UHGV virus genome: UHGV-0230703
From: a virus
Reading direction: 5' to 3' (one strand)
Length of the DNA stretch: 37,329 nt
Shown: in pieces, positions 1,792 to 21,847 of the stretch
Position numbering within the stretch: position 1 is the stretch's first letter
Layout of the letters: the number at the start of each line of letters is the position of its first letter
Program-made: the position numbers and the translations under genes
Notes under the pieces: generated by a model
Seen by the model: only the letters and a program-made list of their open reading frames with translations
What the model was told of the DNA's origin: nothing
Database searches by the model: none

Positions 1792-1815
1792 AGTATGGTC
1801 AAAAGTATGGTCAAA
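1792..1815 (+). repeat. tandem direct repeat AGTATGGTCAAA x2 (putative integrase arm-type site)
   Basis: exact 12-bp period seen in sequence. Confidence 0.6.
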
Positions 1816-2092: not shown

Positions 2093-2887
2093 GTGAGTAA
2101 ACAATGTGCAAAGTGCGGAGGTAAAATTGGCTTAACTTCATATAAAATCAAAGATAAACAAATTGTTTGCGGCAATTGTATGAAAAAAGCTGGTTACGGT
2201 ATGACTACTCCTTATAAAATAATAAGATCTTTGAATTTAGAAGATTTAGATAAGGATCCATCAGAAAAAAGAAAATTAAACATATCTGATCATACTGCAC
2301 ATAACAATCATGATATAGGTAATGATAGAATGAGAACCACTGAAGAGATGGTAGAATTTTGTCTTAAATACGGCTACGGTAAAGGAATGACTAAAAAATG
2401 GACAACTCATCATTTTAACTTAATATCAGATCAACTTAACAGTGACGAATACGTAATCTTCTGCTTTGTAGGATTGCATAATTATATCTCATCAACTAAG
2501 CATGACAATAATTATGCATACGCATTAACTAATAAACGTTTAATTGTAGCTCAACAAAAAATGATAGGCAATAATGTACAAAGTATTATATTAGACAATT
2601 TAAATAATATTAGTAAAAAAAGAGGAATGCTGTTGGGTACATTAACTATTGATACTCTTGGTAAAGTATTGAATGTTGCAGTTGATAAAGATACTGTTGA
2701 TAGGATAAGTGATTCTTTAAACGAAATTATTTATAATTTAAAAAGAAGAAATATTTCTGCTACAAATTCCAATACATCAACAATTTCCTCAGCTTCAGAA
2801 ATAAGAAAATATAAAGAACTATTGGATGATGGAATCATTACAGAAGAAGAATTTAATAAAAAGAAACAAGAATTATTAGATTTATAA
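2093..2887 (+). CDS. accessory protein: N-terminal CxxC..CxxC zinc ribbon, central bacterial PH-like domain, C-terminal SHOCT domain
   Basis: GTG start with RBS AGGAGG 7 nt upstream; MSKQCAKCGG...VCGNCMKK; ...ALTNKRLIVAQQKMIG... PH-like; C-terminus IRKYKELLDDGIITEEEFNKKKQELLDL matches the SHOCT consensus. Confidence 0.75.
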   Translation: MSKQCAKCGGKIGLTSYKIKDKQIVCGNCMKKAGYGMTTPYKIIRSLNLEDLDKDPSEKRKLNISDHTAHNNHDIGNDRMRTTEEMVEFCLKYGYGKGMTKKWTTHHFNLISDQLNSDEYVIFCFVGLHNYISSTKHDNNYAYALTNKRLIVAQQKMIGNNVQSIILDNLNNISKKRGMLLGTLTIDTLGKVLNVAVDKDTVDRISDSLNEIIYNLKRRNISATNSNTSTISSASEIRKYKELLDDGIITEEEFNKKKQELLDL

Positions 2888-2981: not shown

Positions 2982-3284
2982 ATGCTGATGGAAGGAAAAA
3001 CACAATTATGGTTTAAATTTGATCCTTTGAATAGATTTATCAAAGATTTTTATAAAGTATGGGATTCAGAAGTTTTCTTTTTAGCAATCGAAGACAGTTT
3101 ATTAATCAATCTCTACTATTCTAATAAGAACTACTTTAAAATTCCTGCTGCGAAAACGAGAATGAAGAAGGATGTATACTTTTTATTTGATGTGGTGACT
3201 GACGTGCCGGACGCACGTAGCGATCATCGGCGTTATGACTATATAAAGTATACTTTCGTTGATCCAGAAAGGTATAAAGATTAA
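2982..3284 (+). CDS. hypothetical 100-aa protein, second gene of the plus-strand accessory cassette
   Basis: ATG with RBS GAGGTGA; own promoter upstream and hairpin terminator downstream. Confidence 0.7.
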   Translation: MLMEGKTQLWFKFDPLNRFIKDFYKVWDSEVFFLAIEDSLLINLYYSNKNYFKIPAAKTRMKKDVYFLFDVVTDVPDARSDHRRYDYIKYTFVDPERYKD

Positions 3285-3288
3285 AGTA

Positions 3289-3308
3289 GGCTACCTAAAA
3301 AGGTAGCC
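3289..3308 (+). terminator. hairpin GGCTACC-taaaaa-GGTAGCC after the accessory cassette
   Basis: perfect 7-bp inverted repeat 5 nt after the stop codon; U-tract weak (ttttat). Confidence 0.45.
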
Positions 3309-3513
3309 CGGAACGGATTTTATCACCATACTTATGAAAGGAGATATTTTTAAGTTAGTATTAAGATTGTGTAATATGATGATATCTATATTTTATAGTA
3401 TCAGTGCTATAAAATCAAAAATAAGTCACTAATTAACTATCACTCCAATTATAAGTCTTTTTTCCATTATTTTTTACAGTTATATGGTATGCTTTTTAAT
3501 GGCTTCAAATATA

Positions 3514-3575
3514 AAAGAGTTTAAAGCGTAACACACTTATTGGGGAGTGGTTTTTGGGGAACGCTTTAAACTCTT
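3514..3575. other. long hairpin: 15-bp perfect stem (AAGAGTTTAAAGCGT / ACGCTTTAAACTCTT) enclosing a 31-nt G-rich loop containing TTTTTGGGGAA
   Basis: seen directly; no coding potential; a related element is at 4059..4116. Confidence 0.5.
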
Positions 3576-3698
3576 CTTTATTATTATCTCACAATATAAC
3601 TCAAATGTCTTTCTATTTAAAAATCAAAGTAAAACTTTTCAAATATACAGAAGTATAACTATGTGAAACATCCTTTCATTAATCCATAAAAGGATACA

Positions 3699-3723
3699 TA
3701 AAAAAGCCACTCATTTGAGTGGC
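3699..3723 (-). terminator. rho-independent terminator downstream of the tRNA-like gene
   Basis: stem GCCACTCA/TGAGTGGC followed on the minus strand by TTTTTT. Confidence 0.6.
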
Positions 3724-3798
3724 AATGAAGAAAAGCTTTAGCTTGTATAATACTCTTCAAAAAATTCTAACACAGAACAATTCAATTGGCTACGTTAA

Positions 3799-3872
3799 TG
3801 TACCCTGTAGGACTCGAGCCTACGACCGGACGGTTATGAGCCGTCTGCTCTAACCAACTGAGCTAAGGGTAT
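3799..3872 (-). tRNA. tRNA-like gene, anticodon CAT (Met, or Ile via lysidine), with non-canonical A1/C72 and C54
   Basis: minus-strand cloverleaf ATACCCT-TA-GCTC-AGTTGGTTA-GAGC-A-GACGG-CTCATAA-CCGTC-CGGTC-GTAGG-CTCGAGT-CCTAC-AGGGTAC-A; D arm and anticodon arm canonical; CCA not encoded; followed by terminator 3699..3723. Confidence 0.5.
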
Positions 3873-4058
3873 GGAAAGCCACCACAACTCCTGCAAACAA
3901 AAAGAATGGACCTGAGAAAAGATAAATTATTTTTTTCATTCTTTACGTTGCGGTGGCATCTTTATTATTACATATTTAATAGCAAAAAACTAGATTGTAC
4001 TTATTCTTTGTAAAATATATTATTTTATGCTATTATTTCCAAGTCATAAAAAGAAAAA

Positions 4059-4116
4059 AGCTTCAGATACTTATCTTTTTGGGGAAAGACTCTAGGGTGA
4101 GGGAGTATCTGAAGCT
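4059..4116. other. long hairpin: 12-bp perfect stem (AGCTTCAGATAC / GTATCTGAAGCT) with 34-nt loop containing TTTTTGGGGAA, A-run before and T-run after
   Basis: seen directly; shares loop motif and architecture with 3514..3575. Confidence 0.5.
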
Positions 4117-4260
4117 TTTTTCTATGTTTATTATCTCACATAGTTATTTTTTAGTCTATTATTTGCTTAATTTTTTATATTATAATAATTTTATTTGATC
4201 CTTAATTAGTAACGAACTACTCTAAATTGCTAGCAATAATTACGGTATCTAGCTTAAAAT

Positions 4261-4286
4261 AAAAAAACACCTCAAATGAGGTGTTT
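4261..4286 (-). terminator. rho-independent terminator of csp
   Basis: stem AACACCTC/GAGGTGTT followed on the minus strand by a 7-T run, 12 nt after the csp stop. Confidence 0.65.
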
Positions 4287-4297
4287 AAAGTTCAACA

Positions 4298-4495
4298 TTA
4301 TTTTACAATATTTACTGCTTGAGGGCCACGTTGACCTTCTTCAATATCATAAGTAACTGCTTGGCCTTCATCTAAAGACTTGAAGCCTTCTCCCTGGATC
4401 GCTGAGAAATGTGCAAATACGTCATTTCCATCTTCTCCAGTGATAAATCCAAAACCTTTGTCTGAGTTAAACCATTTTACTGTACCGTTATTCAT
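4298..4495 (-). CDS. csp: cold-shock protein, CspA family (65 aa)
   Basis: [18 protein letters not shown]...DVFAHFSAI contains RNP1 (KGFGFI) and RNP2 (VFAHF) motifs; RBS GGAGGA. Confidence 0.95.
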
Positions 4496-4710
4496 ATATA
4501 TTTCCTCCTAATACGTATATAATACGTGTTTTGTTGCAATTAATATTACTTTGTAAAAGGAGTTTTTATAGTGTGAATATATCGCTCAGATTACGTTTCA
4601 AATTAGATTACTTATTTACTATAACATGGATGTAATGCTAACACAAGGATAAATATTCAATATGCGGTTTAATACAAAGAAGTAGGGTTAACATTTAAAA
4701 GAGTTAATAG

Positions 4711-4857
4711 CAGAACAAAAAAAGTTGTCAATATATAAAGCGAACCTATTTAGCTCATCGCAGCACTGCTCGTGGTTTTATTAGAAACAAGGCTACTCTT
4801 GAGGATTTGGAAGAATTAAAGAAGCTAATTGAAGAAAGAGAAAAATCCCTCACCTAA
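4711..4857 (+). pseudogene. start-less 48-codon ORF, apparent 3' gene remnant (…YLAHRSTARGFIRNKATLEDLEELKKLIEEREKSLT*) ending at the bidirectional terminator
   Basis: open frame bounded upstream by TAA/TAG with no ATG/GTG/TTG start until near its end; C-terminus-like sequence. Confidence 0.3.
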
Positions 4858-6372: not shown

Positions 6373-7347
6373 TTATAGCGTCAAATAAATATCAGAAATC
6401 CGCACGTCATTTACTGCGCCTTCACCGTTTGACTGATTGCATCGGCGCAAAATGATATCAATCTTCTTCCCTTTCATCCAACTAGAATCAAAAGTAACAT
6501 CAAAACCTAGCGCATCGCCACCTTGATAGCCGTATGCCTTTTTGACATCTGGCCGAGCAATCCCTTGAGATTGGATACGTGTTAATTCTTTAGGTGTCCC
6601 ATGTTCCATCACAAGTACGTAAGCATAAGTTCCAATTGCACCTTGTGGTTTATCAGGAACCAACCAACCAGCTACACGAACTGTTTTATCTGTTACCTTT
6701 TTGAAAATATCTAGTTTGCCATAAGCATTTCCCTGATGCGTTGGCGTGCTTGCTGATACTTTATCGTCATGATTTTGATCTTCTGTACTGCCATCAGGTT
6801 TCAATGCGGAATTATCATGGTATTTCTTGATTTGTGAAATAAAGTAATCTTGCATTTGAACAGTGATGGCTGCAGGAACTGCTAACGTAGAATCATAGCC
6901 ACAATGTTCCATCAGTGAACGCTTAGGGCATTCAGTTGCTGAAAATTGATGATGGCATTTGACTGTATCTCGGTTGACTGGCAATCCGTAAAAACGAAGA
7001 TCTTCTGCTGCTTGCCAGAAAGCATTTTGTTCTGCTTGTAGGAAAACTGCTTTTGGTGTTTCACGATTTCCACGCACTTCATATCCGATATAGCTATTAT
7101 TACCATCAGAATTAGCGACATGCCAAGCACGATTATAAGTATCTTCTGTGCGAATAATCGTGTTTTCATCACAGTAATAATGAGCAAATCCTGCTTCTAA
7201 CTGTTTATCTGTCATTCCTGCTAAACGATTCATTTCTTGTTCTGCAGTCGTGTTTGTCCAAGTATTATGGATGACTACACCCTTCACGTCTCCTACACGT
7301 CTACCTGCTACACCACGACATACTGAATTATTGATAATATTGACCAT
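6373..7347 (-). CDS. endolysin: N-acetylmuramoyl-L-alanine amidase (amidase_2/PGRP-like) with C-terminal cell-wall-binding region
   Basis: N-terminal amidase_2-like region (GVVIHNTW...YYCDEN...H...C) and position directly after the holin. Confidence 0.9.
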   Translation of the reverse strand: MVNIINNSVCRGVAGRRVGDVKGVVIHNTWTNTTAEQEMNRLAGMTDKQLEAGFAHYYCDENTIIRTEDTYNRAWHVANSDGNNSYIGYEVRGNRETPKAVFLQAEQNAFWQAAEDLRFYGLPVNRDTVKCHHQFSATECPKRSLMEHCGYDSTLAVPAAITVQMQDYFISQIKKYHDNSALKPDGSTEDQNHDDKVSASTPTHQGNAYGKLDIFKKVTDKTVRVAGWLVPDKPQGAIGTYAYVLVMEHGTPKELTRIQSQGIARPDVKKAYGYQGGDALGFDVTFDSSWMKGKKIDIILRRCNQSNGEGAVNDVRISDIYLTL

Positions 7348-7760
7348 TATTTTTTTCCTCCTAAAGTATTATTTTTGTCTTTTCCTTGTTCTTCAGATGA
7401 ATCTTTTAATTTGCTGAATCGATCTTTCACAAAATCTGGAATTGGGATCCCTAATTGACCTAAATTCTCGATCACCGAGATTCCATAAACAGCAATGTAT
7501 GAAAGCACAAAAGCTGTTGCGACTCCTTCAAAGTTCATGATTTTAAGATAGGGATACGCAATCAGCACAAGCGCCACGACCAGCAAATGCTTTACTACCC
7601 CCATCAGTCCTTTAGTACTATTTGTTTCTTTTCCAGCAAGTCCCTTACAAACTCCTGTAATGATATCCGCAATGACAATCCAAACAAAAATTTGAATATA
7701 AACGTTGCTTACTAGATTTTTAAACTCTGATAACAAAACTAAATTATCAATGATCACCAT
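7347..7760 (-). CDS. holin
   Basis: small protein with TM helices and charged C-terminal tail; ATG 7760 with RBS GGGTGGA; ends 1 nt into the lysin start. Confidence 0.8.
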   Translation of the reverse strand: MVIIDNLVLLSEFKNLVSNVYIQIFVWIVIADIITGVCKGLAGKETNSTKGLMGVVKHLLVVALVLIAYPYLKIMNFEGVATAFVLSYIAVYGISVIENLGQLGIPIPDFVKDRFSKLKDSSEEQGKDKNNTLGGKK

Positions 7761-11459: not shown

Positions 11460-14357
11460 CTATTTCTTCGCTCTGGCGAAACAAACATCGCCACCGTTTA
11501 ACAAATAACCGAAAGACCAGTCTACGCGACCGATACCAACACCATTGGAATTCATACCGCCCATTTCAACAATAGACGTGCTATATCCCTTCCAATCCTC
11601 TGCTAAAATAGCGGTATGGCCATCATTACCAACGCCTGCACCTAAATTAACAATGATGATATCTCCGGCTTTCGCTTCATTTGGGGATATTTCAGTAAGA
11701 TACTGACGTGCTCCTCTTGCATCTGCAGCCATTGAACCCGTGTACCATAGAGTCCCACGTGTTGCGGTTTTATATCCCGCTTTTGTCAAAGCTAGCCAAA
11801 CAAAAGAAGAACAGTCAGCATATCCATTACGATCAGGGTTCTCGACACTGCCAAAATTCCAACGCAATGGTTGAGAATAATGGAAATAACCCATCAAGCT
11901 TTTGGCTGTACTGAGAATACTGCCAGCAGATGGGACTTGAAGATCTCTAAATTTGTTATACCAATTAACTGCCCATCCTTGTCGTTCTGGATGAGTCGTG
12001 GCTGGTCTTTCATAATTTCGTTCAAATGTATAAGCAGCAGCTGCTGGATCCGTCATTGCTTTAAATCCAGAAACACTTGTCGGTTGAACAATTCCTAACC
12101 ATTGACCGTTATACATCGTCCAATCTAATAACTTTCCTTGAGCTGACATGGTTCGATAATCTTCTGTAATTCCTGCAGCTCTCATCAGGTTCTGGACATA
12201 AGTCCTGCCATCCCATGTTGCTGGAAGAACCAAAGGATATGCTGAACCATCCCATTGAACGATTCCATAAGCTGAACCGCCGACTTGTGCAACATCTGGA
12301 TTCATTGCAGCACCGGCTTCTCCTTGAACATTTCCAAGGATTCCAGCAATGGATGCTTTGGAATACCCTCTAGAAAGAAGCATGACCCATAATTCCCAAG
12401 CAAATTTGTCTGCTTGACTGGTAACCTCTGGTGGATACATGCCATTCCAACTACCGCCATCATTATTTCCACTTCCGCCTTGTCCAGGGAATACTTCTTG
12501 TCCGTTAATTGTTAGTTTTCCGCGAATATTAACGTTTTTCATAAATTCCGCATCACCAAAGGCATTTAGCTTTTCCTGTAGATTTAAACTTCCAAATAAT
12601 ATAGAAGTTCCATTCCCAAGGATTACCCAACCTTTTCCTTCTTTTGGTGAAATGAGAATATATTTTCCATCGCCGTTTGTTCGAATGACTAACGAATTAT
12701 CTTCTAACGGTGTAGGAGTGGATGCGCCAGGAAAAGGATTACCTGCAGAATCAGTAGTACCAATTGTGCCAATGGATTCTTTGGTGTTCCAGAACTCCAT
12801 CCCTTTTTTGGTTAGCTCCATGATTTTTTTGTTGCTGTTCACAATTTGCAAAGCTCCTTTTACTAGCTTGAGCTGATCACCCACAGCGTTAAATGAAGTT
12901 TCAAAAATATCTGCTCTAATACGTCCAGATTGGATATAATTGGCATTGAAGTTTCCATCAATCGTCCATGCCGTTTTGAAATTTGACTCATTGAATTTCC
13001 CATCAATAAAACCAATCCCTTCCGAATTAGCTACAAGAAAATGGTTAGAAGTATCAATACTATCCCCATTCATCCAAACCATCTGATATGGTTGACGACT
13101 TTCGCCTTTACCAGTATCCCAAGGATTCATCATGATAATTGATCCACCCTTTGCTCCGCGAATGATATCCGACTGCCATTTAGAAACTTCGGTGGACTCA
13201 TAAAAGGTCATCTTCTTCTCATCAAGAGTCTGTATGGCAGTTTGAGTATTTGAAGCTTGACGTGTTGATGAAGTATTTAAATTATCACCTAAGCCAGTTT
13301 CGACTTTTCCTGTTAATCGATCAATCTTCACACTGAAAATTCTAGTCTCGTAATGATAGCCGCGGTCATCACGATGAATACGTATAATATTACCTAAACT
13401 ATCTGCTCCGAAAATAGTTGCTTTAAATTGAACTAGCGGACGTGAACAGTTAACCAATTCTTGATAGGTAAGCTGAATTAGTTCAACAGGATCTTCGCAG
13501 TCTTCGAATATAATTACCTTCTCACGCTTACGACGTTTTCCGTTTTTAGTAGGAATACCATATTTTTCAGTCATCTCAGGGATTTCCAAATATATCTGGC
13601 CAGTAGGCTTGTTTAACGGATCCCCTTTTGATTTGGACCAGTATACTTGATCAAACTCAATTCGACGACCATAACCATCTCCAACCTCTTCACCACGACC
13701 GCGGCCGATTAGAGAAGTATAGATGTTACTTCGATTCACTTCTTTTTCAATTGTCAAGGCTTTATCACCGTACTCATATCGCTCATTACTGTATTCGCCA
13801 ATCTGCTTGTAAACTTCTATCCATTTATCTGTGATGCCTTCTCCACTTAGATTGCACCTAAAAACAATCTCGCATCCTAACGTTTGTAGATTTTTTAAGG
13901 CTTCGCGGATACTACAGTAGTAAAAAGTCATAGAAACTGCTGGCAGTGTTGAATCTAAATGACCAACTCGCCACTCACCTAATGTAAAATCTATGACTCT
14001 CTGGATGGTTTTCTGAAAAAACTCGTTAGCCGGACGAATATCATTAATGATATAAGCATCCAATTCATCAGGACCAAAATTAATCCCAGTAAATATCAAC
14101 AATGAACCCGGATCAGCAATTCCGATAATTTTATACATAGAAAAAGACGACTCACTTTCACGAACCGCCATATAAGCTGATTCTTTAATTTCGTCATCAA
14201 ACTCCATGCTAACTGCTAACTTATCATTAATTAACTCATCTTTACTTGGTGTGATTTCCTTTTCTTGAACTACAGAAAAAAGTTTATCTTCCCCTACTAT
14301 TTTTATAAGTTTTTGGCTTTCATCGAAAAAATAAACATCTTTGTCCATTACAACCAC
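11460..14357 (-). CDS. tail-associated lysin (Tal): N-terminal prophage tail endopeptidase fold, central lysozyme-like domain, C-terminal NlpC/P60 peptidase
   Basis: 965 aa after Dit; GILGNVQGEAG lysozyme-like motif; C-terminal YADCSSFV...GHTAI NlpC/P60 Cys/His. Confidence 0.85.
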   Translation of the reverse strand: MVVMDKDVYFFDESQKLIKIVGEDKLFSVVQEKEITPSKDELINDKLAVSMEFDDEIKESAYMAVRESESSFSMYKIIGIADPGSLLIFTGINFGPDELDAYIINDIRPANEFFQKTIQRVIDFTLGEWRVGHLDSTLPAVSMTFYYCSIREALKNLQTLGCEIVFRCNLSGEGITDKWIEVYKQIGEYSNERYEYGDKALTIEKEVNRSNIYTSLIGRGRGEEVGDGYGRRIEFDQVYWSKSKGDPLNKPTGQIYLEIPEMTEKYGIPTKNGKRRKREKVIIFEDCEDPVELIQLTYQELVNCSRPLVQFKATIFGADSLGNIIRIHRDDRGYHYETRIFSVKIDRLTGKVETGLGDNLNTSSTRQASNTQTAIQTLDEKKMTFYESTEVSKWQSDIIRGAKGGSIIMMNPWDTGKGESRQPYQMVWMNGDSIDTSNHFLVANSEGIGFIDGKFNESNFKTAWTIDGNFNANYIQSGRIRADIFETSFNAVGDQLKLVKGALQIVNSNKKIMELTKKGMEFWNTKESIGTIGTTDSAGNPFPGASTPTPLEDNSLVIRTNGDGKYILISPKEGKGWVILGNGTSILFGSLNLQEKLNAFGDAEFMKNVNIRGKLTINGQEVFPGQGGSGNNDGGSWNGMYPPEVTSQADKFAWELWVMLLSRGYSKASIAGILGNVQGEAGAAMNPDVAQVGGSAYGIVQWDGSAYPLVLPATWDGRTYVQNLMRAAGITEDYRTMSAQGKLLDWTMYNGQWLGIVQPTSVSGFKAMTDPAAAAYTFERNYERPATTHPERQGWAVNWYNKFRDLQVPSAGSILSTAKSLMGYFHYSQPLRWNFGSVENPDRNGYADCSSFVWLALTKAGYKTATRGTLWYTGSMAADARGARQYLTEISPNEAKAGDIIIVNLGAGVGNDGHTAILAEDWKGYSTSIVEMGGMNSNGVGIGRVDWSFGYLLNGGDVCFARAKK

Positions 14358-15133
14358 ACTCCTCTATATCGTATTAAGGGAGTGCCGTTATCACACTCAA
14401 CTAGATCACCGGTCCTAACCATAAAGTTTTTAAAGGAGCTAGTAAGATCAAGAATTCTCGTTTTATTCACTCCATTTACAAAAACTTTTCCCTCAGCTAT
14501 GTCCATCTCGATAAAGTCACCTTTTTTTATCATTGAGTTAGTCACACTAATATTTTGACGGCCATTTGTAATTCTTAAGCTCCCATCATTATTAGCCTTT
14601 AAACTAATTGAAATCGGAGCTACTTCATACGGAAGATATTCTGCGACTATGCCGTTTGTTTCAAATATACGTGTATATTTTCTGGGATCAGAACAGATTA
14701 TAGAGAAACTAGATATTACACTATGAACGTTTCCTGGAATATTATCACAGGTCTGATACCTTCCGTAATAATACATATCCAACTCATCGTTAAAGTGAAT
14801 TTCTACATCTTTATCCCTGTAAAGCAGCCTCATCAATTTATTAAAGCTTCGTTGAAATTCAATAGGATTCTTTTCTTCTAATTTAAAATGTATAGTTAAA
14901 ATCCTCTCTGGAAGTCTTTGAGAACTAATACGAACACCTATGCTCACCGCTTCACTCTCAATCTCTAAAGAAACCATTTCTCTACCTTCCACATACAAAG
15001 TCTGGTACCCTTTTATATAATTCTCGATAAACTTCCCATCATAATTCAATGCAGACGTCGGTATCCATGTTTTCTGACTGTCGTTTTTAATCGTGTCTCT
15101 GAATTCATACATTGGATTATGCCACTCCATCAT
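14348..15133 (-). CDS. distal tail protein (Dit, siphovirus tail component)
   Basis: 261 aa directly after the TMP, overlapping the Tal start. Confidence 0.75.
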   Translation of the reverse strand: MMEWHNPMYEFRDTIKNDSQKTWIPTSALNYDGKFIENYIKGYQTLYVEGREMVSLEIESEAVSIGVRISSQRLPERILTIHFKLEEKNPIEFQRSFNKLMRLLYRDKDVEIHFNDELDMYYYGRYQTCDNIPGNVHSVISSFSIICSDPRKYTRIFETNGIVAEYLPYEVAPISISLKANNDGSLRITNGRQNISVTNSMIKKGDFIEMDIAEGKVFVNGVNKTRILDLTSSFKNFMVRTGDLVECDNGTPLIRYRGVWL

Positions 15134-15147
15134 ATTTCCCTCACTTT

Positions 15148-17970
15148 CTAGAACAATAAATTAATATCCGCCTCTTTACCTTGAATGTTTGAAATATCCT
15201 CAACAAACGCTTCAAACACTTGATTTCCTATGCGAATATTGAAAACTGCAGGACGTTTATTTTTGCCGTAGTTAACACTATGCTCTATTTGTGTTGTGAA
15301 ATTTCTATTTGCATTTTTTAAATTCTCTGAAAGATCAATACTAGGTGTACGAGTAAAACTATCTGCAATCATATTAGCCATGTTTCCTACATTGCTTTGG
15401 ACACTGGCAAAGCCATTAGTTAAACCTGCGTTTAGTCCATTCATGATTGCTTGCCCAGCTGGGATTAACAATTTTCTATCGTATCGAATAGGTCCTTTGT
15501 GTTCCCTAATCCAGTCACCAATACCTCCAACAAAATCTTGGACTCTTTTCCATTTTTCTTTCAGTCCATCAAATAAGCTGTCCATGATTGCTTTACCAGC
15601 TTCCCAAAGGTTAATATCTTTAATTTTATTAAACCAACGCTTCACCTTATCAACCGTATCACTAACAGCATTTACTAAATTATCCCATGCCTCTTGAGCA
15701 CCATTTACTAAATTGTTGAAAGTATCTATAGTACCTTGTTTTAGGTTTTCCCATCCCTGAATGATGTTATCCTTAGTTCCAATAACTAGATTAATAAACC
15801 AAGCTTTGAAAGAATTCCATAAATCTTTCGCTCCTTGAATCATATTATTAAACAGATCGATTGTCCCTTGTTTTAGGTTATTCCATCCCTGTTTAATACT
15901 ATTTACAATATTGTTAGTTGTCTCTTTAATCCATGTAGTAAAAGAATTCCACATATCTTTGATGGTAGAAGTTAACACATTCCAGATATTTATCACAGTA
16001 TCCTTTAAGGATGTGTAATAACCAATAACTATATCTACAAACGTTGTGATAATGTTTTGGATATTTGTAGTTAATGTAGTCCACAGCATCGAAGCATCTT
16101 CTTTTAACTGATTAAAATTACCTGTTATCAAATCAATCAAAAGTAGAATTGGACCCATTACAACAGTTTTTATAATTTCCCATGCAGAGCCTGCGATTGA
16201 TCCAATTTGAGACCATAGGTTCGTAAAGAAATCAATCATTGGCTGAAAAACATTTTTTATGGCAATAACATACGGTGCTAGAATGTTTACAATTTCTTCC
16301 CAAGCGGAACTAGCAGCTTCTTTGATGCCATCCCATATACTCGAAAAGAATTCTTTTGTTTCAGTCCATTTATTCTTGATCCAATCTGCCGCTTTTCCAG
16401 GAGCTTCTTGAATTGTAGTCCAAACATTGTCTGCACCTTCTTTAATGGACTTCCATAAATTGTTAAACCATTCTCCTGTAGATTTCCATGCATTCTGAAT
16501 CCATTCTACTGCCGAGCTTACAGCAGACTTGATTCCCTCCCATAAGCCAATCCAAAAGTTTCTAAAATCTTCACTCGTATTCCAAAGATAGATGAAACCT
16601 ACAACAAGTAGTGCTACCGCAGCTATAACCAATCCGACTGGACTGGTAAGAAAACCTATGGCGGAACCTAATTTCTTGAACAAAGAGATTCCGTTACCTA
16701 ATACACCTAACCCCACTTTCATGGTTTGAAACGCTTTAACCAGCATTCCTAATGCATACAATACTGGCCCAATTGCAATAGCGATTGCTCCTATGGCTAC
16801 TACTAATCTTTGAGTTGATTCTGGAGCACTTACAAATTTTTCTACTAAGCCGGATATGGCATCTGCTACTTTTTTGATGGATGGTGCTAGAATCTTTTGA
16901 ATTACAATAGCTGCTGACTCAAAAGCTCCAAACATTTGCTCGATGGAAGAATTCATATTATCTTGCATGGTCCGAGCCATATCGTCAGCTGCACCATCAG
17001 AATCTTTCAGAGATTTTGTTAATTTGCCCAATGAATCAGGTCCTTTATCAATCAAAGCCATCATCCCTGATAATGATTCTTGCCCATATAGTGTTACTAA
17101 AGCATTTTGTTGTTGTTCAGGCGTCAGGCCTTCAAAAGCTTTTTTAAGTAATTCTACTTGAGTTTTTAAAGGTTTCATTTTACCGTCAGCATCATAAAAC
17201 GAAACACCTAAATTATCCATTGTATCTTGCATAGCCTTTGTTGGCCTTGCTAACCTAGACAATGCTCCTCGCAACGTTGTACCTGCTTGAGAACCCTTAA
17301 TACCTGCGTCACTCATAATACCAATAGCTGCTGCAGTTTCTTCCAAAGAAATACCCATTGAATTGGCTACAGGAGCAACATACTTCAATGCCTCTCCCAT
17401 GTCTCCAACTTCAGCATTGGTATCCGCAGCAGCACGAGCAAATACATCAGCGACATGTCCTGCTTCACTTGCTTCTAAACCAAATCCTCTCAAAGCAGTA
17501 GCAGTATTTTCAGAAGCTAGAGCCACATCCCCTCCAGATACAGCTGCTAAGTCTAAAAGACCCGGCATTGCTTTCATGATTTCTTGTGCGCTAAATCCAG
17601 CAGAAGCAAGATTTTCCATGCCGGCAGCCGATTCTTTTGCGCTAAAAGCAGTTTTTGCTCCTAGATCAATCGCTTGCTGTTTCATCTGTTCAAATGTGTC
17701 GCCTGTTGCTCCTGATATAGCTTTTACACGACTCATTTGTTCTTCGAAGTCGCCACCAACTTTAGCAGCTGCTACGCCTACTCCTATAAGAGGAGTGGTA
17801 ATATACTTTGTCATTGCGGCACCAGTACCTTGCATCACTTTACCTACAGCGGTTGTCATACTATTTGATTTCTCTTCAAAAGTCTTAACAGCATCTTGCG
17901 CATCTTTAAAAGTCTTTACAAATCCACTATCTGTGGCTTTTAATAAGGCTTCAACAGAAAATTGTTCCAT
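15148..17970 (-). CDS. tape measure protein (940 aa)
   Basis: Ala/Gly-rich N-terminal half, central TM segments, C-terminal periodic W/F repeats; position after gpG/gpGT. Confidence 0.9.
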   Translation of the reverse strand: MEQFSVEALLKATDSGFVKTFKDAQDAVKTFEEKSNSMTTAVGKVMQGTGAAMTKYITTPLIGVGVAAAKVGGDFEEQMSRVKAISGATGDTFEQMKQQAIDLGAKTAFSAKESAAGMENLASAGFSAQEIMKAMPGLLDLAAVSGGDVALASENTATALRGFGLEASEAGHVADVFARAAADTNAEVGDMGEALKYVAPVANSMGISLEETAAAIGIMSDAGIKGSQAGTTLRGALSRLARPTKAMQDTMDNLGVSFYDADGKMKPLKTQVELLKKAFEGLTPEQQQNALVTLYGQESLSGMMALIDKGPDSLGKLTKSLKDSDGAADDMARTMQDNMNSSIEQMFGAFESAAIVIQKILAPSIKKVADAISGLVEKFVSAPESTQRLVVAIGAIAIAIGPVLYALGMLVKAFQTMKVGLGVLGNGISLFKKLGSAIGFLTSPVGLVIAAVALLVVGFIYLWNTSEDFRNFWIGLWEGIKSAVSSAVEWIQNAWKSTGEWFNNLWKSIKEGADNVWTTIQEAPGKAADWIKNKWTETKEFFSSIWDGIKEAASSAWEEIVNILAPYVIAIKNVFQPMIDFFTNLWSQIGSIAGSAWEIIKTVVMGPILLLIDLITGNFNQLKEDASMLWTTLTTNIQNIITTFVDIVIGYYTSLKDTVINIWNVLTSTIKDMWNSFTTWIKETTNNIVNSIKQGWNNLKQGTIDLFNNMIQGAKDLWNSFKAWFINLVIGTKDNIIQGWENLKQGTIDTFNNLVNGAQEAWDNLVNAVSDTVDKVKRWFNKIKDINLWEAGKAIMDSLFDGLKEKWKRVQDFVGGIGDWIREHKGPIRYDRKLLIPAGQAIMNGLNAGLTNGFASVQSNVGNMANMIADSFTRTPSIDLSENLKNANRNFTTQIEHSVNYGKNKRPAVFNIRIGNQVFEAFVEDISNIQGKEADINLLF
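15705..15965 (-). repeat. about 129-bp (43-aa) tandem duplication inside the tape measure gene
   Basis: DNA: ccttgttttaggttttcccatccctgaatgatgtt vs cccttgttttaggttattccatccctgtttaatact; protein: IKQGWNNLKQGTIDLFNNMIQGAKDLW / IIQGWENLKQGTIDTFNNLVNGAQEAW. Confidence 0.6.
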
Positions 17971-17986: not shown

Positions 17987-18280
17987 TCAAGAGTTAGCTT
18001 TAGTTAGTAAGCTTTGGAATTTTTTATCTTGTTTTGAAAGTTCGGAAACTCCCATGATTGAATCTTCGATTTTTTGATAATTAAAGAATTCTTCAAAGGA
18101 TCGATATACAGGAACTGTCTTTTTGCCTACTTTTTTCTCCGCTTGGACTTGCTGATTTGCCCACGCTAATTCGTGAATCAACTTTTCTTTGTCAAGCCAG
18201 GATAACTGGGCTGCAGTCATACGAATGTTGTATTCATATAAAGTCATTCTTTCGATATCTGAAATATTGGTCATTCCCAA
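17987..18280 (-). CDS. gpT-like extension of tail assembly chaperone, expressed as a gpGT fusion by -1 frameshift from 18328..18696
   Basis: frame is open upstream (no start needed) back to the slip site 18388..18394; ends overlapping the TMP start. Confidence 0.75.
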   Translation of the reverse strand: MGMTNISDIERMTLYEYNIRMTAAQLSWLDKEKLIHELAWANQQVQAEKKVGKKTVPVYRSFEEFFNYQKIEDSIMGVSELSKQDKKFQSLLTKANS

Positions 18281-18327
18281 ATATCGAAAGGAATTTATAA
18301 GAATTTGTTCATATGCAAGCGCAGAAT

Positions 18328-18696
18328 CTATTCCGCCTGTTGTTTTTCCGCTTCTTTCAATTTCTGATTCAGGTTTCGGACCGCTAACTTTCCCGCATTT
18401 GACTCTGCTAATTCTTTTAAGACGTTATCAAACAATTTTTCAATGTCTTTAACTTCATCGATGTAATCATCCAATTCATCTAATGTAATAGATTCATCTT
18501 CAGTTCTATTTGCTATTTCCAGAACTCGTGACAACGTGTTGACATTATAAGAACGTAATTCCGGTAAGACTTTTGCTGAGAGTCCCATTCCAAATTCCAT
18601 ATTTCCATCGATGAAAGGCATCACTTTGTCTAATTCACGTACAAATTTAGTGCCAAATTTAAACGAATATTCTTTACCTTTAATTTTTAATTTCAA
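18328..18696 (-). CDS. tail assembly chaperone (gpG-like)
   Basis: 122 aa between major tail and TMP; contains the slippery heptamer G_GGA_AAG 20 codons before its stop. Confidence 0.8.
   Translation of the reverse strand: MKLKIKGKEYSFKFGTKFVRELDKVMPFIDGNMEFGMGLSAKVLPELRSYNVNTLSRVLEIANRTEDESITLDELDDYIDEVKDIEKLFDNVLKELAESNAGKLAVRNLNQKLKEAEKQQAE
18388..18394 (-). other. -1 programmed frameshift site GGGAAAG (identical to lambda G/GT)
   Basis: minus strand ...GCG GGA AAG TTA...; the -1 frame (GGG AAA GTT AGC...) stays open into ORF 17987..18280. Confidence 0.75.
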
Positions 18697-18741
18697 TGTT
18701 TTTCATCCTCCTAAAATAAAAAAGAGAGCATCTAAGCCCTC

Positions 18742-19254
18742 TTATGCTCCTGTCGAAGTTGCTTTCACGGTATCTTTGAATGCATATTGAACAACATCGG
18801 CTTGATCTTCTGTCAAGGTTGCATAACCATCTTGACCAACACCATTTACTGCAAATGATAAACTTAATTCAACGTTATCCTCTGCAGCAGCCGATGGAGT
18901 AAATTCAGACACATATGCTTGGTAATAAGTAGCTTTGTACTTATTTGCATTATCATCTGTTCCCTGTTCTGCTTTGTTGATTTCCCAAATTTCAATGATA
19001 TCGCCATTTAATAAGGCTTGTTTCATTTCATCTACATGAGAATCTCCTTTAGCAACTATTGAAGTAGCCGAAAAATCATATTCAACTGGACTTAAACTTT
19101 GAACGTTTCCGTCTTTTGTCACTGTAGAGTCTGAATCTCTTGATAAACCATTTTCGTGTTCTGTTTGAAATGCCATTTTCCAAGCAGCTTCCTGAGTTTC
19201 TTTTTTCAATAAGCGATAAAGCAAAATGACATCAATACCTTTTAGTGCTTCCAT
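18742..19254 (-). CDS. major tail protein
   Basis: start moved to ATG 19254 (RBS AGGAGG, 6-nt spacer); position before the chaperones. Confidence 0.8.
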   Translation of the reverse strand: MEALKGIDVILLYRLLKKETQEAAWKMAFQTEHENGLSRDSDSTVTKDGNVQSLSPVEYDFSATSIVAKGDSHVDEMKQALLNGDIIEIWEINKAEQGTDDNANKYKATYYQAYVSEFTPSAAAEDNVELSLSFAVNGVGQDGYATLTEDQADVVQYAFKDTVKATSTGA

Positions 19255-20642: not shown

Positions 20643-20906
20643 CTAACTAGCAGGTTGACCTGTCACATTGATTGAAGTAGTGAATTCTCCAGAAGTAAAT
20701 GTGAATGTTGCTGATCCTTCTGCTGCAATCGTTCCATCAAAACCACCATTTTCATTTTTGGTCACTGTTGCGATAGCTCCATCACTTGAAGTTGCTGTAG
20801 TAGCTGCAACAACAGTAGCTGCATCGCTAGCATCTGCAGGCACAGCTGAAATAGTAAATGTTTTAGTATCGCCTACTTTACCGGTCCATGTCTTTTGATT
20901 TGGCAC
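20643..20906 (-). CDS. Ig-like (Big_2-type) domain ORF; most likely a C-terminal extension of MCP via -1 frameshift, not independently initiated
   Basis: no RBS, GTG only; frame open upstream to the CCCAAAA slip site inside the MCP 3' end; Thr/Ala-rich beta-sandwich-like sequence. Confidence 0.7.
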   Translation of the reverse strand: MPNQKTWTGKVGDTKTFTISAVPADASDAATVVAATTATSSDGAIATVTKNENGGFDGTIAAEGSATFTFTSGEFTTSINVTGQPAS

Positions 20907-20923: not shown

Positions 20924-21847
20924 TTACGCTTTTGGGGAAATCTTCCCAAATGCTTCATCTTTTACAATCATAAATCCAACATCCATTGTTGCACGCAAAG
21001 CAATCAGTTCTTGCTCAAACAAGTTAACTGGGGTTCCATCTTCATTATTTAAAGTAGACAATTGGGCTTCTTCAGAAATCTTAAATGAAATATTATATGG
21101 GATCCCATAAAACATGTAGTTGAAGTCTCCAGCGTAAAGAGTCCCTTTATCTAAAGACTTAAGGTCTACTACTGGTAATCCGTCAATTGTATTAGCAGAG
21201 CGATCATAAATAAACTCAACATTTGACCCGACTGTTTGAGCTGCAGAACGTAATTCTGTACGATTTTTTCGGTTTGAAATAAACGCATTAGGTTCGAATT
21301 CATTTTCTGCTAACTTGTCTTCTAAGGCTAGGATATTATCATAAGTCAATCCGCCTTCAACCACATTCCCCGCACTAATAACTGATTCGTCTAGTGACTG
21401 AGGAAATGGATTTTCTTTATTTAATAAGGCAGCTGCATCAAATTTTTTATAGAAAGCTTCAGCAATTTTTGGCTGCATCTCAGCAAAGAAATCTGATAAT
21501 TTATAATTTAAATATTCACGAGAAACCGGAAGAATGACACCGAGTTTTTTTGCAGTCATCGTAGCTTCTATCCATTTAGGTTTAGATGTTTTAATTTTTT
21601 CACCTTCACCCACCCAATATGCGCCTGGTCCTTCTGCAAAGTATTCAAATTTCTTTTCTTTGTCAGTCATTTCTTCGTATTTTGCTAACTGCATGATCTT
21701 AGAGTTTTCCATAACTTCACTCAAAATGAGCGTATTATATTTATCAGGAATTTTTCCCTCTTTCGTTTCATATACCATAACATTATCTGGATCCCATGTT
21801 TGAGCAAACATTTGCAAGTTCATTGGTAAAAGTTGTTTCTTTTTCAT
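20924..21847 (-). CDS. major capsid protein (HK97 fold)
   Basis: 307 aa after scaffold; RBS AGGAGG; N-terminal MNLQMFA L27-like motif. Confidence 0.9.
   Translation of the reverse strand: MKKKQLLPMNLQMFAQTWDPDNVMVYETKEGKIPDKYNTLILSEVMENSKIMQLAKYEEMTDKEKKFEYFAEGPGAYWVGEGEKIKTSKPKWIEATMTAKKLGVILPVSREYLNYKLSDFFAEMQPKIAEAFYKKFDAAALLNKENPFPQSLDESVISAGNVVEGGLTYDNILALEDKLAENEFEPNAFISNRKNRTELRSAAQTVGSNVEFIYDRSANTIDGLPVVDLKSLDKGTLYAGDFNYMFYGIPYNISFKISEEAQLSTLNNEDGTPVNLFEQELIALRATMDVGFMIVKDEAFGKISPKA
20930..20936 (-). other. -1 programmed frameshift site C_CCA_AAA, 2 codons before the MCP stop
   Basis: MCP frame ...ATT TCC CCA AAA GCG TAA; -1 frame CCC AAA AGC GTA ACG CCT... continues 94 codons through the Ig-like ORF to 20643. 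Confidence 0.65.

Follow-up and report, generated by a model that had tools for sequence, protein, structure and literature searches.

A predicted -1 frameshift in the tail assembly chaperone gene of a temperate Enterococcus siphovirus

The viral genome UHGV-0230703 (37,329 nucleotides (nt); "the window" hereafter means this whole stretch of DNA) contains a tail module belonging to a temperate siphovirus of Enterococcus, in which the tail assembly chaperone (TAC) gene G is followed by a second open reading frame (ORF), T, lying in the -1 frame. It is predicted that a slip by one base at the heptamer GGGAAAG (18394..18388) joins the two frames and yields a 27-kDa fusion protein, GT; we put the probability of this reading at about 0.9. 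Every sequence-level feature of the conserved G/GT programmed -1 frameshift was found here, which supports its presence. The G/GT frameshift in this phage is an ordinary, already known feature, and it opens no new question. Its practical value lies in the correction of annotation, since the slippage join is absent from the records of the two nearest deposited phages (PQ283533 and PQ554527).

The slip site and the predicted fusion

The product of gene G matches the Pfam family PF12363 (Phage_TAC_12) with E=3.3e-31 and 108.5 bits (cut-off 26.2) over profile positions 1-110 of 111, and phrog_183 in PHROG with E=4e-35. It also matches positions 1-120 of phrog_441, and the T product matches positions 119-235 of 257 of the same profile (E=4.9e-51); because G and T thus match successive halves of one profile, it is suggested that some phrog_441 members are themselves fused products. 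At the level of structure, a single-sequence AlphaFold model of G (predicted local distance difference test score, pLDDT, 62.8) had no Foldseek match in the PDB with E<1, and a phmmer search against PDB sequences returned nothing relevant. A conserved "spiral" TAC fold was reportedly described by Pell et al. in 2013 (as cited in PMC4493119).

A zero-frame codon ends with base 18394, and the heptamer is therefore read as GCG GGA AAG (Ala-Gly-Lys), i.e., as G_GGA_AAG. As read from the sequence, zero-frame translation of G would mostly end at 18328 and give the 14-kDa gpG. After a -1 slip, the reading becomes GGG AAA GTT AGC GGT CCG and continues to a TGA at 17989..17987, in a frame that is open from 18424 to 17987 and contains the ORF of 97 amino acids (aa) previously listed on its own. 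The simulated fusion has the junction ...ELAESNAGK/VSGPKPESEIER... and the junction peptide SNAGKVSGPKPE. The original prediction, which was made from the sequence without database searches, had placed the heptamer at 18388..18394 in this 122-aa chaperone gene and in this phase, had followed the slipped frame for 136 codons and had given the same junction peptide; all of this holds, the 136 codons being 135 sense codons counted from GGG plus the stop at 17987, in a fusion of 236 aa. It had also taken the T frame to overlap the start of the tape measure protein (TMP) gene, which is incorrect: the T stop (17989..17987) and the TMP ATG at 17970 are separated by a 16-nt spacer, and this spacer carries the TMP ribosome binding site GGAAAGGAGG.

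The phase and location of the heptamer are unusual. In-phase X_XXA_AAG occurs at only 2 of the 9521 in-phase positions in long minus-strand ORFs, from which 0.007 occurrences would be expected within the 32-codon overlap of the two frames, and when the codons of G were shuffled, 1.9% of trials placed such a heptamer among the last 32 codons (P = 0.019). The consequence of slipping is equally unusual. Across the 88 in-phase X_XXY_YYZ heptamers found in ORFs of 100 aa or more, the -1 frame extends for a median of 7 codons, compared with 133 at the G site, and only four heptamers extend at least 50 codons beyond the zero-frame stop: the G site, the 3' end of the capsid gene, a plus-strand shadow ORF and the holin/endolysin junction (7356). 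Just one further in-phase X_XXA_AAG exists in a long ORF, T_TTA_AAG at 14603; it was rejected, as its -1 frame is shut after 1 codon. The A_AAA_AAA at 7356, with a -1 extension of 325 codons, was likewise set aside as a slip site, as the endolysin has its own GGAGG and ATG. There, the holin gene ends in GGA GGA AAA AAA TAA (7347..7360, minus strand), the endolysin ATG overlaps the holin stop by one base (TAATG), and the in-phase A_AAA_AAA coincides with the GGAGG Shine-Dalgarno (SD) sequence of the endolysin gene, which is an ordinary coupled gene junction.

Conservation of the slip site among relatives

The closest deposited relatives, Enterococcus phage vB_ElaS_B1578 (PQ283533) and "Acinetobacter phage D2SVT" (PQ554527), are 96.6% identical over the region. 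Both are annotated with the same G coding sequence (CDS) and with a separate 86-aa T CDS at the equivalent of 18247, and neither record carries a slippage join. More distant relatives are more informative. An in-phase G_GGA_AAG stands at the aligned position, within the peptide ESN[AT]GK, in TP901-1, Tuc2009, IME197 and five further loci (L068, L069, L071, L072 and L073, of which L068 and L069 are identical in the G/T region), and it is retained down to 31% identity in G (L073). In EH-TP1 and L075, an in-phase A_AAA_AAG lies inside the G/T overlap. Wherever the G and T parts of a diverged locus could both be put in register, T lies in the -1 frame with respect to G. The conserved G/GT arrangement to which the original prediction appealed is upheld by gene order, by the -1 overlap, by the in-phase heptamer and by diverged relatives including TP901-1.

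An exhaustive HMMER search with the fusion against 1.84 billion representatives returned 579 relatives, and architecture was determined for the top 150 of them. Approximately 37 of these 150 are G-only, approximately 111 are T-only and 2 span the junction; none is a full-length in-frame G-T fusion. The two junction-spanning proteins were discarded as natural in-frame fusions: P0010, which also reads into the N-terminus of the TMP and looks like an assembly with indels, and P0089, which is a fragment. A separate homologue search with the 236-aa fusion gave 3 matches only, two of them with frame errors, and is uninformative.

It should be noted that several database records among these relatives look mislabelled or contaminated. 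"Acinetobacter phage D2SVT" (PQ554527.1, L002), for which A. baumannii AB5075 is given as the host, is 96.6-97.4% identical to the window phage, which is of a low-GC Enterococcus type, and to vB_ElaS_B1578, and its host label is probably wrong or the sample contaminated. Moreover, five G/T relatives (L065, L066, L067, L069 and L072) are contigs of assemblies labelled as non-Enterococcus bacteria, namely a Dysosmobacter metagenome-assembled genome (MAG), Colwellia ponticola, Flavobacterium petrolei, Streptomyces sp. NPDC093111 and a Veillonella MAG. Four of these contigs are short (489-3207 bp), and that from the Veillonella assembly measures 30.7 kb. Identity to the window is 92-96% for three of the five; of the other two, one matches L068 (E. 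spodopteracolus) over the stretch compared and the other resembles IME197. It is likely that such labels stem from assembly contamination or mis-binning.

Is T an independent gene?

T might instead be a gene of its own, translated from ATG 18247 (86 aa) or from TTG 18280 (97 aa), in which case the heptamer would be incidental. The G stop lies just 48 nt upstream of TTG18280, and re-initiation after this stop is a possible route; furthermore, the 86-aa CDS is the one annotated in PQ283533 and PQ554527, and T-only proteins are called by gene callers across the family. However, no SD sequence was found at the candidate T starts, whose duplexes with the anti-SD (+0.6 kcal/mol for TTG18280, 0.0 for ATG18274 and -0.5 for ATG18247) are weaker than the background median of -2.4 kcal/mol, compared with -10.7 for G, -16.3 for the TMP and -10.2 for the capsid gene. 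Nor is any start conserved. ATG18274 is replaced by an Ile codon in several haplotypes, and the starts of the T proteins that were called are scattered over query residues 110-168. In the related phage TP901-1, mutation of the slip site alone abolishes tails (PMC4493119).

Further evidence comes from variation upstream of the candidate starts, which was analysed in 32 distinct haplotypes out of 57 close relatives. In the interval from the G stop to TTG18280, third positions of the -1 frame account for 6 of the 7 variable columns (binomial estimate ~0.007), and for 10 of 14 when the interval is extended to ATG18247 (~0.004). Conserved residues are found there as well. In an alignment of the fusion with TP901-1, IME197, EH-TP1 and L058, the conserved T domain begins at approximately fusion residue 125 with the motif S..xYExILINxFRYLG (residues 125-141), in which Y129 and R138 are invariant. 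The motif stands ahead of L140, the first possible start, and of M151, the start annotated in the GenBank relatives. Many T-only representatives likewise align from query residues 110-129. Inside the 97-nt overlap the pattern is different, with 12 of 17 variable sites among close relatives falling on zero-frame third positions, which indicates that constraint in this stretch is stronger on the reading of the G C-terminus; the first ~20 residues after the slip act as a loose, poorly conserved linker.

With no SD sequence and with coding constraint on the T frame upstream of every candidate start, the 97-aa ORF bears no sign of independent translation, in line with the original prediction that it is not an independent gene; a T gene of its own is very improbable. 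In annotation, this "hypothetical protein / tail assembly chaperone" ORF (97 aa, or 86 aa in the GenBank relatives) should be given as the C-terminal portion of a product labelled ribosomal_slippage, with the coordinates join(18696..18388, 18388..17987).

Another reading is that the arrangement is a relic in a decaying prophage from which neither T nor GT is made. The window does resemble an integrated prophage, an integrase is present in matching phage records, and some relatives are located in bacterial chromosomes. Nonetheless, in the remainder of T, 26 of 33 variable sites are third positions, which implies purifying selection; long ORFs are intact throughout the structural module; and the 96.6%-identical relative PQ283533 was deposited as the complete genome of an Enterococcus phage. 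A decaying relic is therefore extremely improbable, and a GT product of the -1 slip remains the preferred interpretation.

Proposed mechanism and stimulatory elements

By analogy with lambda and TP901-1, a minority of ribosomes (a few percent) would slip by -1 at G_GGA_AAG, with the tRNA-Gly in the P site shifting its pairing from GGA to GGG and the tRNA-Lys in the A site likewise from AAG to AAA. These ribosomes would then read GTT AGC GGT and onwards to the TGA at 17987, giving the 27-kDa gpGT (...SNAGK-VSGPKPE...). During tail assembly, the G part of GT would bind the TMP and the T part would recruit the major tail (tube) protein, and both chaperones would depart from the finished tail. A fixed low GT:G ratio, set by the efficiency of slippage (~1:30 in lambda), would be required for functional tails. 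Indeed, lambda uses GGGAAAG, with ~96% zero-frame reading (PMC3296357), and its G:GT ratio of 30:1 is critical (PMC5009743). G_GGA_AAG is also highly shift-prone in E. coli (PMC5009743). That such a fusion is made in a fixed small proportion, is needed for tails to form and is missing from virions has been shown only for lambda and, through mutagenesis, for TP901-1.

Several observations weigh against the frameshift and have to be set beside this scheme. First, the bare sequence GGGAAAG is not enriched in the window (4 copies, 3.77 expected). Second, its invariance among close relatives carries little information: 59 of the 60 loci first retrieved have the heptamer, but they are at least 94% identical, and the probability of no change in 7 columns is ~0.35. 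Third, no stimulatory element was found. The downstream stem-loop that the original prediction suggested looking for was sought by folding and by RNAalifold and did not emerge: minimum free energies compared with shuffled sequences gave z = 0.24 for 58 nt and z = 0.29 for 98 nt downstream, and the RNAalifold consensus for 9 relatives had 0 pairs, although that alignment is weak, with two sequences mis-registered. Upstream, no SD-like stimulator was found, as the preceding 17 nt pair with the anti-SD at -2.4 kcal/mol, which equals the background median. Fourth, two diverged relatives, L058 (IMGVR_UViG_2654587504_000002, at ~2224..2232) and L070 (Enterococcus phoeniculicola, at ~1800..1810), have G_GGG_AAG (GCG GGG AAG) in place of G_GGA_AAG and no other canonical heptamer in the overlap.

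With regard to the stimulatory elements, the sequences downstream of the heptamer are not conserved among diverged relatives, and it appears that the slip relies on the heptamer alone, with neither an RNA structure nor an upstream SD-like stimulator. With regard to L058 and L070, the change from GGA to GGG is synonymous and keeps P-site re-pairing, whereas A-site re-pairing is weakened or broken; the -1 frame of L070 opens a mere two codons ahead of G_GGG_AAG. Either this exact sequence can be dispensed with, or the copies in L058 and L070 are impaired. It is thus conceivable that the TP901-1-type chaperone family may tolerate G_GGG_AAG, which would imply that slippage proceeds mainly by P-site re-pairing.

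The same two loci, in which the two-frame architecture is kept without a canonical heptamer, could also be taken to mean that the fusion arises by some other form of recoding, either by a slip elsewhere in the 97-nt overlap or by transcriptional slippage of RNA polymerase. The six-A run in EH-TP1 and L075 could in principle permit some polymerase slippage. Slippage of the polymerase, however, needs a homopolymer of ~7 nt or more, and the homopolymer runs of GGGAAAG are only 3 nt long. Moreover, GGGAAAG is the sole in-phase X_XXY_YYZ heptamer within the overlap, and the +1/-2 frame is full of stops. Recoding of another kind is consequently very unlikely, and a ribosomal -1 slip at GGGAAAG itself is favoured.

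Gene order and other features of the window

The genes of the tail region are all on the minus strand and are listed in transcription order in Table 1, in which the ATG start of the 170-aa major tail protein (MTP) is borrowed from the annotation of PQ283533. The order is MTP, G, T, TMP, so that both chaperone ORFs sit between the major tail and tape measure genes.

Table 1. Features of the structural module around the predicted frameshift, in transcription order
Feature	Position	Strand	Remarks
Capsid	21847..20924	-	Pfam Phage_capsid
Four small head-tail connector ORFs	between the capsid and major tail genes	-
Major tail (tube) protein	18742..19254	-	directly upstream of G; Pfam Phage_tail_2 E=5e-17; phrog_238 E=3e-64
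Shine-Dalgarno AGGAGG of gene G	18707..18712	-	10 nt ahead of the TTG
Gene G, tail assembly chaperone	18328..18696	-	122 aa, 14.0 kDa, TTG start; zero-frame product
GT fusion coding region (predicted)	join(18696..18388, 18388..17987)	-	236 aa, 27.1 kDa
Dual-open-frame stretch	18328..18424	-	97 nt (G C-terminus and -1 frame); the slip must fall here
Slippery heptamer G_GGA_AAG	18388..18394	-	proposed -1 slip site
T segment, -1 frame after the slip	17987..18388	-	133 aa and stop
97-aa ORF (T), TTG 18280	18280..17987	-	phrog_441
Tape measure protein	15148..17970	-	940 aa; directly downstream of T; PhageMin_Tail E=2.8e-59; phrog_58 E=3e-177
Dit	15133..14348	-
Tail lysin	14357..11460	-	965 aa

Directly after the MTP stop and ahead of the SD sequence of G, there is a hairpin with an 8-bp stem followed by a TTTTATTTT tail (18722..18743, minus strand, with the T run extending to ~18713), which is terminator-like by consensus match only. 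Such an element could reduce the expression of G, GT and the TMP compared with that of the tail tube protein. Lactococcus phage B1 (X84706) has an annotated terminator at the corresponding position.

Elsewhere in the window, a 1.8-kb segment (3000..4818) contains a tRNA-Met gene (anticodon CAT; 3799..3872, minus strand) and shares 96.6% identity with two Listeria phage records, LM 4-11-1 and LM 4-14-1, both of them unannotated. Outside this segment, the window matches Enterococcus phages; a mobile or mosaic module is one possible reading of the segment.

A candidate second frameshift at the capsid gene

The capsid gene ends in ATT TCC CCA AAA GCG TAA, in which C_CCA_AAA stands in phase at 20936..20930, three codons before the stop. 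It is followed by an Ala/Thr-rich ORF of 87 aa (20906..20643, minus strand, GTG 20906) lying in a -1 frame that is open from 20954; neither an SD sequence nor a Pfam match was found for this ORF. C_CCA_AAA is kept in 38 of 39 relatives, and the remaining one has A_AAA_AAA at the same place. A slip at C_CCA_AAA would yield a 401-aa capsid variant with a C-terminal extension. The structural module may therefore hold a second programmed -1 frameshift, by which the 87-aa ORF would be appended to a fraction of the capsid subunits. A similar capsid-extension frameshift was proposed for MCP3 of TP901-1 and was not seen on Western blots (PMC4493119). This second frameshift and the tolerance of G_GGG_AAG in the TP901-1-type family are tentative suggestions, to which, taken jointly, we would give somewhat less than even odds.

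Comparison with known systems

Like the cassettes of the dnaX/IS type, in which A_AAA_AAG is flanked by an SD-like element upstream and a hairpin downstream, the G/T overlap contains a heptanucleotide tandem-slippage site ending in A_AAG. Heptamers with this ending are shift-prone in bacteria (PMC5009743). Unlike in those cassettes, neither a downstream hairpin nor an upstream SD-like element was found here, and the efficiency of slippage, inferred from lambda, would be expected to be a few percent rather than the ~50% of the dnaX/IS type.

The likeness to lambda is one of sequence at the slip site, of position and of logic. The nine-base slip context GCG GGA AAG (Ala-Gly-Lys), as read from NC_001416, is the same; the gene pair is likewise placed between the major tail and tape measure genes; and in both cases the outcome would be a low-ratio, C-terminally extended chaperone, with an RNA structure not evident. 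The lambda G/G-T frameshift is reportedly the work of Levin, Hendrix & Casjens in 1993 and of Xu, Hendrix & Duda in 2004, 2013 and 2014, and the conserved G/GT chaperone frameshift of long-tailed phages is said to have been set out by Xu, Hendrix & Duda in 2004. The description of the site as identical to that of lambda, given in the original prediction, is therefore correct for the slip sequence and does not extend to the proteins, which are not detectably similar to lambda gpG/gpT: in a blastp comparison of the 236-aa fusion with lambda GT (279 aa, from NC_001416) the best E was 10. The proteins belong to the TP901-1-type Phage_TAC_12/phrog_441 family and not to the lambda gpG/gpT families. 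The layout also differs, in that the heptamer lies 22 nt from the G stop in lambda and 64 nt here, and lambda T overlaps the start of H, whereas here T ends 16 nt ahead of the TMP start.

The closest studied relative is TP901-1, with 48% identity to its GT over the simulated fusion and with similarity at the DNA level in G. TP901-1 and Tuc2009 (gpG/gpGT, orf43/orf44) share with the window the order MTP, G, T, TMP, the GGGAAAG at the aligned position (ESN[AT]GK) with its phase unchanged and the SD sequence GGAAAGGAGG ahead of the TMP gene. Differences from TP901-1 are found in the host (Lactococcus, compared with Enterococcus here), in the distance from the start of the heptamer to the G stop (31 nt vs. 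64 nt here), in the dual-frame overlap (43 nt vs. 97 nt here), in the size of G (111 aa vs. 122 aa here, i.e., 11 residues longer) and in the post-slip linker, which differs in both sequence and length. In TP901-1, replacement of GGGAAAG abolished tails, and permanent fusion of G to T gave particles that were morphologically normal and non-infectious (PMC4493119). This mutagenesis showed that both the slip site and the G:GT ratio are needed for functional tails (PMC4493119). With the arrangement described here, the lineages that share this conserved mechanism grow by one more, in Enterococcus prophages; the mechanism itself has been put to the test before, in the homologous TP901-1 system.

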